A program made the position numbers and the translations under genes. From positions 743 to 64,742 of the forward strand of contig NZ_JBEBUX010000005.1 of NCBI RefSeq assembly GCF_040393045.1: DNA of 64,000 bases, read 5' to 3'. Each line of letters opens with the position of its first letter. Positions within the stretch are counted from its first letter, which is position 1. The stretch is from Pollutimonas bauzanensis (GTDB taxonomy: Bacteria > Pseudomonadota > Gammaproteobacteria > Burkholderiales > Burkholderiaceae_B). The notes below the pieces were generated by a model. It had not been told where the DNA came from and searched no databases. It was given only the letters and a program-made list of their open reading frames with translations. Below, in pieces: positions 42,254-54,603 of the stretch.

Positions 42254-43147
42254 ATGGATACCCATCGCCTTCATTGCTTTGTGACTGTTGTGGAAGTCGG
42301 CAATCTTTCCAAAGCGGCCGCCAAGTTGCACATGACGCAGCCTCCCCTCAGCATTCTGATACGCAAACTGGAAACTGAGCTCAAGGTCACGCTCTTTGAT
42401 CGCATCAGCAATCGTCTGGTGCTGACCGCAACTGGGCAGCTTTTCTACCGGCGCGCCAAAGAACTGCTTGCATCTATGCAGGCGCTCACCAGGGAGCTGC
42501 AGGAAAGCGACAACGGATTGCGCGGCACGGTCGCGGTGGGTTGCTCCACCGCCGCCAGTCTGTTCATTATTCCAAAGGTCATAGAGCAGATACAGGCCCA
42601 AGGGCTGGATATAAGTGTCCAGGTGCACGAAGGCGCAACCCCGCATCTGGTTGAGCAGCTGCGCAATCAACGTCTGGATGTCGGTATCTGCCGTACGGAG
42701 TACAAGGCCGAAGATCTGCAGACCATGACGCTTTATACCGAGCCCTTGCTTCTGGCTCTGCCTGCCAGTCATCCGCTTCTGGCGAAGCAACAGATTCTTC
42801 TGCAGGATCTGAAAGACGAGCGCTTCCTCATGCATGTGTCGCCTTTAGGGCGAGGCATTTCGGATCTGCTTATTGAGTCATGCCAACTCAGCGGCTTTTC
42901 GCCGCAGGTGATCTATTGGGGAATAGAAACCTTGCCTATGCTGCTTATGGCGGGAAAGGGGCTGGGCATCACCTTCGCTCCAAAAAGCTTTGCACAGCTT
43001 CCCTTCCGGAATCCCCTGAAATTCGTGGAGATCAAGCAACCAAAACTCGAAACACGGCTCAGCCTTATCACGCAAAAAAATCGGGTTCAATCGGCTGTTG
43101 CCCGGCGGTTCCTCGAGATCACGACGCAGGTCATCAATCAGTTGTAG
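42254..43147 (+). CDS. LysR-family transcriptional regulator
   Basis: MDTHRLHCFVTVVEVGNLSKAAAKLHMTQPPLSILIRKLE HTH plus a LysR substrate-binding domain. Confidence 0.9.
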   Translation: MDTHRLHCFVTVVEVGNLSKAAAKLHMTQPPLSILIRKLETELKVTLFDRISNRLVLTATGQLFYRRAKELLASMQALTRELQESDNGLRGTVAVGCSTAASLFIIPKVIEQIQAQGLDISVQVHEGATPHLVEQLRNQRLDVGICRTEYKAEDLQTMTLYTEPLLLALPASHPLLAKQQILLQDLKDERFLMHVSPLGRGISDLLIESCQLSGFSPQVIYWGIETLPMLLMAGKGLGITFAPKSFAQLPFRNPLKFVEIKQPKLETRLSLITQKNRVQSAVARRFLEITTQVINQL

Positions 43148-43958
43148 CCGCCTGCACCACGCGCAAAGGAATCGGTGGATTCAAGCCCGCGCGACCAAGC
43201 ATCGCCACGGCATTGCGATACAAATCAAAACGCAGATCCCAATAGCGGGCGGAATCGACCCAGACCCGCATATTGATGATGATGGTGCTTTCGCGGTATT
43301 CCGTCACCATGACTTCGGGCGCCGGATCTTTCAAGACGAACTCATGGCCCTCGATAAGATTTCGCAATTCCCCCAAGGCCAATTCGATATCGTCGCCGTA
43401 GCGCACACCGACTTCCACATCCAGACGACGTGTGGCGTTGCGGCTGTAATTGATAATGGGGTTGCCCCAGACCAGGCTATTGGGCAAGGAAAGATGCACA
43501 CCATCAAACTGAATAAGGCGCGTCAGGAAAAGCCCGACTTCGGCCACCGTGCCATCGCCCTTGCCCACCACCGAAATATATTCGCCCGCACGCAAGGGAC
43601 GCAAGGCCAGCAGCATGATGCCCGCCGCTATGTTCTGCAGCGTGCCTTGCAAAGCCAGGCCGACAGCCAAGCCAGCCGCGCCAAGCACGGCAATAATACT
43701 GGCCGTCTGCACCCCAAAACGGGCGAGCACTGCCACAATTACAAAAATACGTATCGCCCACACCGTAACGGTGTAGACCATGGGCACAATTGTGGGATCT
43801 ATTTTCGTGGAACGCGCCGCCAGCTTTCGCACCGAGCGGCCCACAAACGAGGATACTGCCCAGCCAATTATCAGGATCAGGATTGTGAAGAGCACATTCA
43901 GCGCAAAGTATTCGATGCCCGGCATCGTTGCAGCAAAATCCTTGACTTGATCGAACAT
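43134..43958 (-). CDS. Mechanosensitive ion channel family protein (MscS type)
   Basis: ORF 43134..44051 trimmed to ATG 43958 (AGGAAGA upstream). Three N-terminal TM helices, pore helix ASIIAVLGAAGLAVGLALQGTLQNIAAG, beta-domain GDGTVAEVGLFLTRL. Confidence 0.85.
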   Translation of the reverse strand: MFDQVKDFAATMPGIEYFALNVLFTILILIIGWAVSSFVGRSVRKLAARSTKIDPTIVPMVYTVTVWAIRIFVIVAVLARFGVQTASIIAVLGAAGLAVGLALQGTLQNIAAGIMLLALRPLRAGEYISVVGKGDGTVAEVGLFLTRLIQFDGVHLSLPNSLVWGNPIINYSRNATRRLDVEVGVRYGDDIELALGELRNLIEGHEFVLKDPAPEVMVTEYRESTIIINMRVWVDSARYWDLRFDLYRNAVAMLGRAGLNPPIPLRVVQAATTD

Positions 43959-44007
43959 ATTCTTCCTATAAAAGCGTTGAAAATAACACCCGCACACCAT
44001 ACACCAG

Positions 44008-44030
44008 TTATCCACGGCAATTGTGGATAA
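44008..44030. promoter_or_regulatory. Inverted pair of DnaA boxes (copy 1 of a 23-bp palindrome)
   Basis: TTATCCACG-gcaat-TGTGGATAA. The right arm is the reverse complement of the consensus TTATCCACA; the left arm has one mismatch. Confidence 0.6.
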
Positions 44031-44179
44031 GCTGGAGGACAACTTGGGCACTACTGAAACAAGACCTTTTATATCAAGCCACTATACAAGCTGGATGAAA
44101 ATGGTCCAAAGCGCGGGACTTGTAATAATTGTATGGGTTTTACGCAAAAATAGCCGGTCGATATACCCACAAATCCAAG

Positions 44180-44188
44180 TTATTCACA
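44180..44188 (+). promoter_or_regulatory. Single DnaA box
   Basis: TTATTCACA fits the relaxed consensus TTWTNCACA. Confidence 0.45.
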
Positions 44189-44220
44189 CGATAAAGCCAG
44201 CGGCAGCGGCCAGGGCAAAG

Positions 44221-44243
44221 TTATCCACGCCTAATGTGGATAA
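44221..44243. promoter_or_regulatory. Inverted pair of DnaA boxes (copy 2 of the 23-bp palindrome)
   Basis: TTATCCACG-cctaa-TGTGGATAA. The flanks are shared with copy 1 (AG...GC). The two copies are 213 bp apart. Confidence 0.6.
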
Positions 44244-44343
44244 GCGCAGGGAAAACTCTTTGATTACATGAAATAACTATGTAATAACAAAGACTTGCGA
44301 TCCTTGCTCGATAACTGGCCATCTGCTTTCACATACTTGACCC

Positions 44344-44490
44344 CTACGGCGTCCGCCCACTAATCAGGCGTACCAGAACCATGATGATCGCCACCACTAT
44401 CAATATGTGAATAAAGCCTCCCACGGTATAGGAGGTCACGATTCCCAATAGCCACAAGACAATAAGAACGACTGCAATCGTATAAAGCAT
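44344..44490 (-). CDS. Small (48 aa) two-helix membrane protein, Lmo0937-like family
   Basis: Own translation; too short for the ORF track: MLYTIAVVLIVLWLLGIVTSYTVGGFIHILIVVAIIMVLVRLISGRTP, stop TAG at 44344. The pattern matches the widespread Lmo0937-type mini-proteins as I recall them. Confidence 0.65.
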   Translation of the reverse strand: MLYTIAVVLIVLWLLGIVTSYTVGGFIHILIVVAIIMVLVRLISGRTP

Positions 44491-44663
44491 AGGCTTACCC
44501 TTCTTGAAGTTTTTAATTTACGCTTCCGCAGCGAATTGCTGTTCGCCGAAGATAGGCGATGCTTTTTTCAGCAAACAACGTGCCACAAGACAGGCTGCTT
44601 GCTGTCGGCACGCCGCTTGCTACATCCCAAGAGACCCCTTTTGGTCGTTTTCAAGGAGATCAT

Positions 44664-45137
44664 ATGAAAAAGCTATTCGCAATCGCAGCCTGCTCCGTCC
44701 CCCTTCTCATAGCGCCTTCCGTCTTCGCGCAAACGACGCCCGCGCCCGGTGCCGACCCCACAACTCCCAAGAGTGATGGAGGTACTGCTCCAGCTACCCC
44801 ACCAATGGGCACGCCCCCAGCCGCGCCGGCTCCTAGCACGTCCGACAGCGCGGCAATGACGGAAGCCGTCACCGGCGTGAGTGTGAAAAGCGCCATCATG
44901 GGCAAAACCGTGTACAACGAGAAGGACGAGAAGGTCGGCGAAGTTACCGATGTGGTACTCGCTTCGGATGGCAAGGCAGCCTTTTTCATTATTGGAGCGG
45001 GCGGCTTTCTTGGCTTGGGCTCGCACGATGTAGCGATTCCGTTCGATAAGGTCACACAATCGAACGACAAACTGCTGCTGCAAGGCTATACCAAAGACCA
45101 GCTGAAAGCGCTGCCCCAGGTAAAGGTCGAAAAATAG
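44664..45137 (+). CDS. Secreted PRC-barrel domain protein
   Basis: ORF 44559..45137 trimmed to ATG 44664, which is preceded by AAGGAGA. Signal peptide MKKLFAIAACSVPLLIAPSVFA. Pro/Ala/Thr-rich linker. PRC-barrel-like C-terminus (GKTVYNEKDEKVGEVTDVVLASDGKAAFFIIGAGGFLGLGSHDVAIPF). Confidence 0.7.
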   Translation: MKKLFAIAACSVPLLIAPSVFAQTTPAPGADPTTPKSDGGTAPATPPMGTPPAAPAPSTSDSAAMTEAVTGVSVKSAIMGKTVYNEKDEKVGEVTDVVLASDGKAAFFIIGAGGFLGLGSHDVAIPFDKVTQSNDKLLLQGYTKDQLKALPQVKVEK

Positions 45138-45147
45138 CGGCGGCGCG

Positions 45148-46275
45148 ATGAACGCCCTGCCGAGCTCGCCTGGCAAAGGCCAAGGCACTGTAGTGGTGTA
45201 TCCGGCTCGCGAAAATGAACCTGAGCACGAAAAACAGGTGCATTTCGGACTGGGCAGACGTATTGCCCAACTACTCGGCCTGCAATTCGGTGGCCAGTAC
45301 GAGCCGGAGCGCCGCTACCCCGGCCGCCTGTATTTCATTCCTAGCGACACTCTTATCGGCATGGAATTTGCGCGCGGCCTGGGCATAGCATCGGAGGATG
45401 ACCTCTTTGGCGGGGTCGCCTCTCATCCATTCATTCCGACCAAGGCCATAAGCCACGCTTTGTTGAGTCCCGATGCCGTTGCGCCGGCCGGATGGTCATC
45501 CGAATTCGGCCGCTTGGTCCAGGAAGCCGTTCTGCAAGGTTTTACCAGCTTCAGCCTGGACGATGCTCATGAAGCGGGCAAGCGCCTGCTTCAATACGGA
45601 CCTTTGCGAATCAAGCCTGTCCATGCCACCGCTGGCCGCGGTCAGGTTCTTGTGTCCGACCTGGACGAACTTGCCCTCGCATTGAAAGCGCTGCCGACGG
45701 ATCGCCTTGCCGACTGCGGCGTAGTATTGGAAGAGCATCTTGAAGAGGTGAAAACCTATAGCGTCGGACAGGTGCGCCTGGCAAAGCTCGTCGCGAGCTA
45801 TGTAGGCACCCAACACCTTACCCCCGATAATCATGGGGAAATGGTGTATGGCGGATCCGATCTTATCGTGGCGCGGGGAGGTTTCGACGCATTGCTCGAA
45901 GCGAACCTGCCGCTGGACTTCCAGACCGCTATCGCAAAGGCGCGGCTTTACGACCAGGCAGCATCGCAGTGCTTCACGGGATTCTTTGCCTCACGACGCA
46001 ACTACGATGTGGCAAGCGGACTGGACAGCCAAGGTAAGCAGCACTATGGCGTACTTGAACAATCCTGGCGAACCGGCGGGGCCAGCAGTGCGGAGATCGC
46101 CGCTCTTGAAACCTTTCACGCCCAAAACCAGACTCAGTTTGTGCGCGCCCGAACTTTGGAGATTTTCGGCCAGCAATCACAACCCCCTTCGCATGCCGTA
46201 GAAACATTCCACGGGGAGGACAAGGATCTTGGCCTGATCCGCAAATATGTAATGGTGGAACCCTATGGGAACTAG
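45148..46275 (+). CDS. Uncharacterised protein, ATP-grasp-like (DUF3182-like)
   Basis: No recognisable named enzyme. LRIKPVHATAGRGQVLV, VVLEEHLEE and LEQSWRTGGAS resemble ATP-grasp nucleotide- and metal-binding elements. Ten-nt gap to the upstream gene. Confidence 0.5.
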   Translation: MNALPSSPGKGQGTVVVYPARENEPEHEKQVHFGLGRRIAQLLGLQFGGQYEPERRYPGRLYFIPSDTLIGMEFARGLGIASEDDLFGGVASHPFIPTKAISHALLSPDAVAPAGWSSEFGRLVQEAVLQGFTSFSLDDAHEAGKRLLQYGPLRIKPVHATAGRGQVLVSDLDELALALKALPTDRLADCGVVLEEHLEEVKTYSVGQVRLAKLVASYVGTQHLTPDNHGEMVYGGSDLIVARGGFDALLEANLPLDFQTAIAKARLYDQAASQCFTGFFASRRNYDVASGLDSQGKQHYGVLEQSWRTGGASSAEIAALETFHAQNQTQFVRARTLEIFGQQSQPPSHAVETFHGEDKDLGLIRKYVMVEPYGN

Positions 46276-51960: not shown

Positions 51961-54603
51961 ATGGAAAGACCAGATATCAGCACACACACACCGATGATGC
52001 AGCAGTATCTTCGCCTAAAAGAAGAAGCAGGTTCGCACCTGCTGTTCTACCGCATGGGCGATTTTTACGAAATGTTCTACAGCGATGCCGAACGCGGCGC
52101 GCGCGTGCTCAACCTGACGCTGACCAAGCGCGGTACATCCAACGGTGCACCCATCCCCATGGCTGGCGTGCCTTTCCACGCGATGGAAGGCTATCTGGCT
52201 CGGTTGGTTGCACAAGGTATATCGGTCGCCATATGTGAACAGGTCGGCGATCCGGCAACCAGCAAGGGACCGGTAGAGCGCAAGATCATGCGCATCGTGA
52301 CGCCGGGCACACTGACCGACGAAGCGTTGTTGCCCACCAAGGCGGATCGCATGATCGCCGCCATCTGGAACGGGAAGATCAACAGAACAGAGCGTACAGG
52401 CCTGGCATGGATGAACCTGGCCAATGGCGAATTCAAAGTCAGCGAATGTTCGCCCGACATGATGGAAACCGAGCTGCACCGCATCGGCCCGGCCGAGCTG
52501 GTATGCGCGGAAAGCAGCCGCATCGGCCATAACACGGGCATCGCCATAAGCGCCATCCCCGACTGGCATTTCGAAGCCGACGGCGCGCACGATGTACTGC
52601 AAAAGCATTTTGCGGTGGATTCCCTGGCGAGCTTTGGCTTGTCTGACTTGCCGGTGGCAAGTTGCGCGGCCGGCGCCCTGCTGCGATATGTCAGCCGCAC
52701 GCAAACGCAATCTTTGTCGCACATCCAGACCATACGCGTCGACCACGCGGGCGGCTATGTCGTGCTGGATCCGGTTACCCGCAAAAACCTGGAACTGACC
52801 GAAACCATCAGCGGCGAAGATAGCCCTACGCTGTTTTCCACGCTGGATCATTGCGAAACCCCCATGGGTAGCCGGCTGCTGCGCCGGTGGCTGCACCATC
52901 CGCTGCGCGACAATGCGCCTGTCCTGGCACGCCAGCAAGTCATCTCTGTGTTGTTATCGCCGCCGCCCAGCGGACAAGCCTTTAATGCCGAAGCACCGCT
53001 GGATACCTTGCGTCAGATGCTGGACCGCTACCCCGACCTGGAACGCATCGCCACGCGTATTGCAATGCGTTCGGTTCGGCCGCGCGAACTGGCCAGCCTG
53101 CGTGAAGCTTTGGCGCTGTTGCCTGCGGTATCTGATCACTTAAAGCAATCCTTTCACGCTGAGTCGATTCTCGCTCCATTCATACAAGCCATCGATATCG
53201 ACCCGAATATCGCGGGCCTGCTGCATCACGCTATCGATCCCGAACCTGCGTTAATGGTGCGCGAAGGCGGTGTGATTGCGCCTGGGTATGACGAAGAGCT
53301 GGACGAACTGCGGCGTCTTGCCAGCGACAGCGGTGAATTCCTGCTTGAGCTCGAAGCGCGCGAACGCCAGCGTACAGGCATTACCAACTTGCGTGTCGAG
53401 TTCAATCGAGTGCATGGGTTTTACATCGAAGTTTCACGCGGCCAGGCAGACAAAGTACCCGCCGATTACCGCCGGCGCCAAACACTGAAAAACGTCGAAC
53501 GCTACATCACCCCTGAATTGAAAACCTGGGAAGACAAAGTATTGTCTGCCAAGGACCGCAGCCTGACACGTGAAAAATATCTGTTCGAAATTCTGCTTGA
53601 TGAGTTCGCACTGTATGCGCCTGCACTTTCGCAATGTGCCTCTGCCCTGGCTGAAATCGATGCCCTCGCCGCGCTGGCCAAGCATGCCCAATTGAATAAC
53701 TGGATTGCACCGCAACTATCCGACAACAATGAAATCATCATTGAAGCGGGTCGCCACCCCGTCGTCGAGCACAGCATCGAGCGGTTCACGCCCAACGACT
53801 GCGAACTGGGTCCGCAACGGCGCATGTTGCTGATCACCGGCCCCAATATGGGCGGCAAGTCCACCTACATGCGGCAGATAGCGCTGATTGCCTTGCTGGC
53901 CAGGACAGGCAGCTTTGTTCCCGCCAACACGGCCAGCGTTGGCCAGATCGACAGGATATTCACGCGTATCGGCGCTGCCGATGACTTGGCAGGCGGACGC
54001 TCCACCTTCATGATGGAAATGACAGAGGCCGCTGCGATCCTGTCTGCCAGCACGCCGCAAAGCCTGGTGCTGATGGATGAAATCGGCCGAGGCACATCCA
54101 CCTATGATGGCTTGGCTTTAGCCTGGTCCATTGCTTATCGCCTGCTGACCCACAACCAGGCGCTTACTCTGTTTGCCACGCATTACTTTGAAATCACGCG
54201 CCTGCCCGCTGAAGCGCCGGCGGCGGCCAACGTCCATCTGGCCGCCGCTGAATCCCCCACCGGAATCGTGTTCCTGCACGAAGTCCAGGCAGGGCCGGCC
54301 AGCCGCAGCTATGGGATCCAAGTAGCGCAACGCGCCGGCATACCCGCTGCAGTAATCCGCCACGCCAGCAAGGAGCTATCGCGGCTAGAGGCCCAAGGTG
54401 CGCCTACTCCCCAATTGGATTTATTTTCGGCAGGCGCCGAGACAGAATCCGACACGATCGGCGATCTGTACCCGGATGCTGTCGATACCGACCAGGAAAC
54501 CGAGTCGGCATTACAATCAGCGCTTGCCGCGATTGACCCCGACCAGCTCACGCCCCGTGAGGCTCTGGATGTGTTGTACCGTTTACGTAAAGAGCATTTA
54601 TGA
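51961..54603 (+). CDS. mutS: DNA mismatch repair protein MutS
   Basis: [19 protein letters not shown] mismatch-binding motif, Walker [22 protein letters not shown]. Confidence 0.97.

Follow-up and report, generated by a model that had tools for sequence, protein, structure and literature searches.

Here, we describe a ~385-bp noncoding gap (43959–44343) in a 64,000-nucleotide stretch of the Pollutimonas bauzanensis genome, referred to below as the window. The gap separates a gene for an MscS-family mechanosensitive channel (mscS) from a gene for a small DUF5670 membrane protein, and it contains two palindromic clusters of predicted DnaA-binding sites (DnaA boxes). With confidence slightly above even, we interpret this gap as a DnaA regulatory locus of the DnaA-reactivating sequence (DARS) type, with two tandem units, A and B, and a putative role in controlling the timing of replication. 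The palindromes are conserved predicted DnaA sites that are laid out like a DARS and not like an origin. Their geometry is identical to that of the Escherichia coli DARS core, with only box III being degenerate. The MscS match places the host in P. bauzanensis, a member of the Alcaligenaceae in the Betaproteobacteria. See Table 1 for the positions of all features.

The gap has two perfect TTATCCAC-N7-GTGGATAA palindromes of 23 bp each, 213 bp apart. These are TTATCCACGGCAATTGTGGATAA at 44008–44030 and TTATCCACGCCTAATGTGGATAA at 44221–44243, and they have AG/GC flanks in common, so that the plus strand reads AGTTATCCACGGCAATTGTGGATAAGC at 44006–44032 and AGTTATCCACGCCTAATGTGGATAAGC at 44219–44245. 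The likeness between the two copies spans 39 nt. By chance, 0.07 such palindromes with up to 3 mismatches would be expected per window, whereas two perfect ones were found. The octamer TTATCCAC occurs four times in the 64-kb window (1.1 expected), and all four copies lie inside the two palindromes. Single DnaA boxes showed no overall enrichment, as 12 9-mers within 1 mismatch of TTATCCACA were found window-wide against 9.0 ± 2.9 expected; half of these (6/12) fall within 44008–44414. The gap is also AT-rich, with a GC content of 43% compared to 56% for the whole window, and TGTAATAA is present at both 44121 and 44280. A preliminary description of this stretch, made from the sequence alone, had reported the palindromes with their spacing and flanks, the AT-rich surroundings with this repeat, and the absence of further core octamers elsewhere in the window, all of which we confirmed. 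It had also recognized the palindrome arms as DnaA boxes, and each unit indeed has one perfect consensus box and one with 1 mismatch.

Both units face the same direction. Read on the minus strand, unit A is TTTTCCCTG-cgc-TTATCCACA-ttagg-CGTGGATAA-ct and unit B is TTGTCCTCC-agc-TTATCCACA-attgc-CGTGGATAA-ct. In both units, box II matches the consensus perfectly and box I deviates from it at 1 position, whereas box I in relatives is mostly CGGGGATAA, with 2 mismatches. At the box III position, relatives keep a TTnTCC half, and the CACA half is absent. This architecture is common to 24 units from 11 Alcaligenaceae loci. An alignment of 15 units gives a full module of ~90 bp that comprises a site resembling the consensus of integration host factor (IHF), ~18 bp, a weak box III', 2 nt, a weak box III, 3 nt, box II, 5 nt, and an inverted box I.

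Table 1. Features of the predicted DnaA regulatory element and its flanking genes in the window
Feature	Position	Strand	Description
Whole element, two predicted tandem DARS-type units	44008..44297	-	Unit A distal, unit B proximal to mscS
Unit A box II, TTATCCACA	44235..44243	-	Perfect consensus; identical in relatives L004–L007 and L132
Unit A box I, TTATCCACG	44221..44229	+	Inverted relative to box II; 5-bp spacer 44230–44234
Unit A box III position, TTTTCCCTG	44247..44255	-	Direct, 3 nt upstream of box II; 5/9 match
Unit A IHF-consensus-like 13-mer, CAAGTCTTTGTTA	44285..44297	-	1 mismatch to YAANNNNTTGATW; starts 54 bp upstream of box II
Unit B box II, TTATCCACA	44022..44030	-	Perfect consensus
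Unit B box I, TTATCCACG	44008..44016	+	Inverted; 5-bp spacer 44017–44021
Unit B box III position, TTGTCCTCC	44034..44042	-	3 nt upstream of box II; 6/9 match
Unit B IHF-consensus-like 13-mer, TAGTGGCTTGATA	44072..44084	-	1 mismatch; starts 54 bp upstream of box II
Lone relaxed DnaA box, TTATTCACA	44180..44188	+	No partner box
MscS-family mechanosensitive channel, 274 aa	43134..43958	-	100% identical to Pollutimonas bauzanensis protein
DUF5670 membrane protein, 48 aa	44344..44490	-	3' end toward element

We compared the two units with the DARS core as it is defined in the literature. This core consists of three boxes (I–III), whose spacing does not differ between DARS1 and DARS2. Boxes II and III face one way and box I the other, with 5 bp between boxes I and II, and box II matches the consensus in full. 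All three core boxes have been termed crucial in E. coli. The definition was confirmed on the MG1655 sequence, where DARS1 is TAATACACA-tgg-TTATCCACA-ggaat-AGTGGATAA-ct and DARS2 is TCTTACACC-atg-TTATCCACA-gaaag-CTGGGATAA-ct. A further triplet of DARS2, TTCTTCACA-act-CTATCCACA-gaaaa-GGTGAATAA, is located 316 bp downstream in the same orientation. Both units of the window have the same arrangement, with TTATCCACA-N5-CGTGGATAA inverted at a 5-bp spacing, a full-consensus box II, and a weaker box I.

In E. coli, DnaA mostly binds “double boxes” formed by a weak box, 2–3 nt, and a perfect box, and most of those bound in chromatin immunoprecipitation (ChIP) are at promoters. Boxes III and II of the window have this same form, a weak upstream box followed by a perfect TTATCCACA. 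Since E. coli DnaA binds double boxes generally, the presence of boxes III and II does not by itself identify a DARS. As a specificity control, the double boxes of the ChIP-bound sites at polA, purH, datA, nrdD, nrdA, and oriC/mioC were tested for an inverted box 5 bp downstream. The inverted box has 1 mismatch in DARS1, 3 and 2 in the DARS2 triplets, and 1 in both window units, whereas the double boxes at polA, purH, datA, nrdD, oriC R4, and mioC have 5–9 mismatches at this position. In the nrdA stretch, no double box passed the filter of this control. As an inverted box at 5 bp was found only in DARS1 and DARS2 among the E. coli sites checked, the head-to-head box appears to be DARS-specific in E. 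coli.

The resemblance to DARS2 extends beyond the core. In addition to a box III, 3 nt, TTATCCACA, 5 nt, and an inverted weak box I, both loci have a second co-oriented core-like triplet nearby (316 bp away in E. coli and 213 bp here), IHF-type sites between the triplets, and an intergenic location away from the origin. However, in the window each unit comes with its own IHF-like site at a constant -54 offset, the CACA half is missing from box III, the neighbors are mscS and the DUF5670 gene and not mutH, and the number of units varies from 1 to 6 among relatives. DARS2 has both IHF and Fis sites at set distances from its core, whereas the Fis consensus GnnYAnnnnnTRnnC had no match between the two window units. 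A separate observation on DARS2 concerns its annotation: the ATG of the 48-codon open reading frame (ORF) ygdT (b4610; L129 3331–3477) of MG1655 directly precedes box II, so that the annotation treats the DARS2 core as part of a gene's coding region. DARS1, found between bioD and uvrB, has the same core spacing, a perfect box II, a box I with one mismatch (AGTGGATAA, compared to CGTGGATAA here) followed by CT, and a location just upstream of a gene start. Unlike the two window units with their IHF-like sites, DARS1 is a single core with a ~50-bp stimulatory flank and no IHF requirement.

From these similarities, we infer DnaA binding, IHF binding, and ADP release in this organism, and a mechanism may be proposed. 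DnaA would bind box II first and recruit further protomers, one head-to-tail on box III and one head-to-head on box I. Contact between the AAA+ domains in the head-to-head pair would loosen the nucleotide pocket, so that ADP is released. The apo-DnaA would then leave the DNA and rebind ATP, so that more ATP-DnaA competent for initiation becomes available. A bend of the IHF type at the constant -54 position would gate or stimulate this reaction, as IHF does at DARS2.

Conservation in relatives, which the preliminary description had proposed as a check, was borne out. In the direction of mscS, relatives carry the motif AGTTGTCC-N4-GC-TTATCCACA-N5-CG[G/T]GGATAA-[C/G]T, usually in two copies. The half that does not vary is the DnaA consensus itself, and the inverted half is weaker (TTATCCACG or TTATCCCCG). 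Units are found upstream of mscS in Candidimonas, Pusillimonas, Paracandidimonas, Alcaligenes, and a second Pollutimonas species, at orthologues with protein identities down to 64–65% (Candidimonas humi and Alcaligenes aquatilis). The gene order PRC-barrel / DUF5670 / gap / mscS is kept in relatives. Compared with the window, the box blocks of L004–L006 are identical at 24–33 of 35 positions, while the remaining gap is only 33–70% identical. We located the individual units with a relaxed scan. Upstream of mscS, there are two units 125–213 bp apart in L004–L006, two units 117 bp apart in C. humi (MscS 64% identical), three units spaced by 122–152 bp in A. aquatilis, and one unit each in P. harenae, Pusillimonas SM2304, and Paracandidimonas. 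Bordetella has its arrays elsewhere, between convergent genes, with two units 118 bp apart in B. petrii and six co-oriented units spaced by 123–190 bp in B. trematum LMG 13506 (L110 4742–5486). These arrays lie between the 3' ends of an FMN reductase gene and a dodecin or PepSY gene; in B. trematum, the six units fill a ~900-bp gap between the 3' ends of the FMN reductase gene and a PepSY-type membrane gene. On the contig that carries the mscS orthologue named Alcaligenaceae bacterium SJ-26 (L130), which lies in a different neighborhood, no unit was found.

Units A and B are distinct subtypes. Box III' is TARTCAAAR in unit A and TAGTGCCCA in unit B, and each form is kept across genera, which argues that the duplication is old and that both copies have been maintained. 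The IHF-like 13-mer of unit A has 10–13 of its 13 bases identical in relatives, and that of unit B is at the same offset in L004, L005, and L006. In addition, the box III' region of unit A (AATCAAAGAGTTT) is 1 mismatch from the IHF consensus on the opposite strand, which may give unit A a second IHF-like site opposed to the first. An imperfect inverted repeat at 44256–44292, CTCTTTGATTACAT / ATGTAATAACAAAG, comprises this box III' region and the IHF-like site.

The distribution of units bears on a second explanation, which the preliminary description had raised as a DnaA-controlled promoter of the channel gene. Here, DnaA would act mainly as a transcription factor, with unit B as the operator of the mscS promoter and unit A cooperating by looping, as 213 bp is equivalent to ~20 helical turns; channel expression would thereby be tied to the replication cycle. 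This is in line with the distance of 50 bp from unit B to the mscS ATG, with the retention of units upstream of mscS in five genera, and with the situation in E. coli, where most DnaA-bound double boxes are promoter sites and DARS1 itself is upstream of uvrB. However, the Bordetella units between convergent 3' ends indicate that the units are not bound to a promoter. Furthermore, the distance from unit B to the mscS start varies from 50 bp in the window to ~200 bp in L005, the unit number varies from 1 to 6, and the SJ-26 orthologue has no unit. The transcriptional double boxes of E. coli that we checked also differ in that they have no inverted third box at 5 bp. We therefore think it unlikely that transcription is the main role of the element, and a promoter function is best kept as a possible secondary one.

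An IHF-like match (YAANNNNTTGATW, ≤1 mismatch) is found at exactly -54 in 17 of the 24 Alcaligenaceae units, where random sequence would be expected to give a match, at any of 40 offsets, in ~0.8% of units. IHF is also part of a third explanation, in which the locus would be a negative element like datA that acts as a sink or a hydrolysis site for DnaA and delays initiation rather than promoting it. Both loci are clusters of DnaA boxes outside the origin with an IHF site. Boxes are densely packed, as 290 bp contain at least 8 of them in the window and 750 bp contain ~24 in B. trematum, and datA requires IHF together with its box cluster. On the other hand, the essential boxes of datA are all co-oriented with the IHF site between boxes 2 and 3, and its double boxes in E. 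coli have no inverted partner at 5 bp. In the window, the IHF-like site is outside the box cluster and the best-conserved feature is a head-to-head pair at DARS spacing. The co-orientation of the essential datA boxes thus makes a datA-like element fit less well, and we give it about the same low probability as a mainly transcriptional role. Of the “DARS or datA-like” alternative offered in the preliminary description, the DARS half is therefore upheld by the core geometry, and the datA half is disfavored by box orientation.

A perfect repeated palindrome could also be the operator of an unrelated regulator, such as the neighboring LysR/IclR-type protein, or a selfish repeat with a fortuitous likeness to DnaA boxes. 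A LysR-type gene is indeed located just downstream of mscS in the window. However, this neighbor swaps while the motif stays, as it is LysR-type in the window and L004 and IclR-type in L005–L007, L132, and L133; the operator of a neighboring regulator was rejected on this basis. The conserved half-site is the exact 9-mer DnaA consensus, and the three-box layout is also seen at the DnaA-bound DARS of E. coli and across Proteobacteria in unrelated contexts. The separate subtypes of units A and B across genera are unlike a recently spreading repeat. Taken together, we consider any explanation of this type improbable.

The preliminary description had listed an origin as one candidate and had placed a flip in gene orientation at the gap. 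The flip is not at the gap. Both flanking genes are on the minus strand, and the point of divergence is at 44491–44663, one gene to the right of the gap. By crude gene calls, 23 of 36 genes to the left are on the minus strand and 12 of 15 to the right are on the plus strand. We also analyzed base composition. To the left of the gap, the plus-strand GC skew amounts to -0.039, and on the right-hand side it reaches -0.062; of 63 2-kb windows, 59 have a negative value, and no switch occurs at 44 kb. The other four 2-kb windows, at 5–7, 13–16, and 24–26 kb, are at or slightly above zero. At third codon positions, the skew of plus-strand genes is -0.115 on the left and -0.184 on the right, while that of the left minus-strand genes is ~0. 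Solving these third-position values for a coding-strand and a replication term gave a replication term that is negative on both sides. It follows that the genes on the right run head-on to replication and not along with a fork leaving the gap.

A dnaA-distal chromosomal oriC was thus rejected on skew, and we assign it a very small residual probability. The points in its favor are the cluster of DnaA boxes in an AT-rich gap with a gene-orientation switch nearby, and the presence of head-to-head pairs in dnaA-upstream regions of some Firmicutes among the matches listed from the wider scan described below. Against it, besides the skew, are the placement of the boxes between genes on the same strand, the lack of dnaA, dnaN, gidA, and parAB in the vicinity, and the homologous array of A. 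aquatilis, which is ~1.34 Mb into a 4.32-Mb complete chromosome, counted from a record start whose placement was unchecked. An intergenic location with no skew switch in 64 kb is instead what would be expected of a DARS, which is a noncoding locus outside oriC.

Several points weigh against the DARS interpretation that we favor. Box III is degenerate in both units and lacks its CACA half; yet box III of E. coli DARS2 likewise matches at only 5/9 positions by our count. The mscS ATG follows the end of unit B at a distance of 50 bp, so that a promoter role is possible. Dense tandem boxes with IHF sites could equally serve titration or a datA-like ATP hydrolysis. Finally, units in related species share ancestry, and their counts therefore measure conservation and are not independent events.

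To see how widely the core occurs, we scanned one genome per species in a collection of 185,579 species genomes for TTATCCACA-N5-CGKGGATAA. At least 120 stretches were found, against a chance expectation of roughly 35 for the full collection by our own estimate. The matches listed are overwhelmingly from Proteobacteria, and the statements that follow refer to them. In most of the 115 non-redundant sites, a DnaA box ends 3 nt before box II; it is visible as T at position -9 (69 sites), C at -7 (73), A at -6 (91), C at -5 (94), and A at -4 (87). A fainter extra box is seen at -23 to -15, and several genomes have two separate loci. The -54 IHF-like site was not seen in these wider proteobacterial matches, although a subset has one near -110; therefore, the -54 site appears to be Alcaligenaceae-specific.

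The genes next to these matches were identified by eye from representative sequences. In Alteromonadales and Photobacterium, the core is beside uvrB, which is the position of DARS1. In a few Firmicutes and Actinobacteria, the core is near dnaA. In Alphaproteobacteria (L012, L025, L034, L063, L088, L098, L108, L119, and L120), the core immediately precedes a UvrC-like gene, after which comes a pgsA-like gene, and no description of a DARS-type position at uvrC-pgsA was found in the searched literature. The core is directly upstream of a gene for a PriA-like helicase of the primosome and replication restart in L043, L079, L091, L095, L103, and L118, which are from Thioalkalivibrio, Burkholderiales, Thiobacillus, Sulfuriferula, and Aquabacterium. 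Pseudomonas and relatives (L009, L021, L026, L032, L053, L059, L078, L089, L092, L094, and L109) have two cores ~510–520 bp apart, downstream of a gene for a ~819-aa Lon-like protease and near UPF0114/YqhA-like and Cho-like (GIY-YIG) genes. In two complete genomes, these Pseudomonas-type cores are at 0.89 of 4.33 Mb and 1.31 of 4.21 Mb.

Other features of the window are listed here for completeness. The fifth box of the preliminary description is present at 44180–44188, and this lone box is probably accessory. It is part of a ~88-bp segment between the units (about 44100–44190), which also holds one TGTAATAA copy and is found only in the window and its closest relative, L004; L005–L007 do not have it. 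A sixth DnaA box with one mismatch, again TTATTCACA, is at 44406–44414 on the minus strand within the DUF5670 coding sequence and may be a chance or an accessory site. An Rfam scan of 43000–45500 at E ≤ 1 gave no match, so no known RNA family accounts for the conserved gap, and a scan for promoter and terminator consensus sequences gave nothing beyond shuffle expectation. An 881-aa ORF on the plus strand (51961–54603), 7.7 kb to the right of the element, is probably mutS, which is thus non-adjacent; the syntenic relative L004 has a Pfam-annotated MutS at the corresponding position. The proximity of mutS is of interest as the E. coli DARS loci flank repair genes (uvrB and mutH).

DARS are already a known kind of element, and what is family-specific here are the tandem modular units, the IHF-like site in each unit, and the variable copy number. 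Within the searched literature, experimental proof that DARS reactivate DnaA exists only for E. coli, and DARS candidates outside E. coli have been reported mainly for close gammaproteobacterial relatives and Vibrio. We found nothing in that literature on DARS in Alcaligenaceae or Bordetella-family bacteria. As a broader and more tentative proposal, which we hold at clearly less than even confidence, Alcaligenaceae may use a modular DARS array of 1–6 units, each with an IHF site and four DnaA boxes, and the DARS core may be pan-proteobacterial beside repair and restart genes. Such a core would span the alpha, beta, and gamma classes and stand beside uvrB, uvrC, priA, a cho-like gene, and, in E. 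coli, mutH. If true, DNA-catalyzed nucleotide exchange on DnaA would be ancestral to Proteobacteria and not an enterobacterial specialty, and it would be tunable by unit number. In other classes, the repeated presence of the core at genes for repair and restart may reflect a broader connection of replication licensing with DNA repair. The element described here is a concrete fragment for asking whether control of the DnaA ADP/ATP cycle is the same outside enteric bacteria, in a family that includes the Bordetella pathogens and in which the variable number of tandem units offers a natural dosage series.

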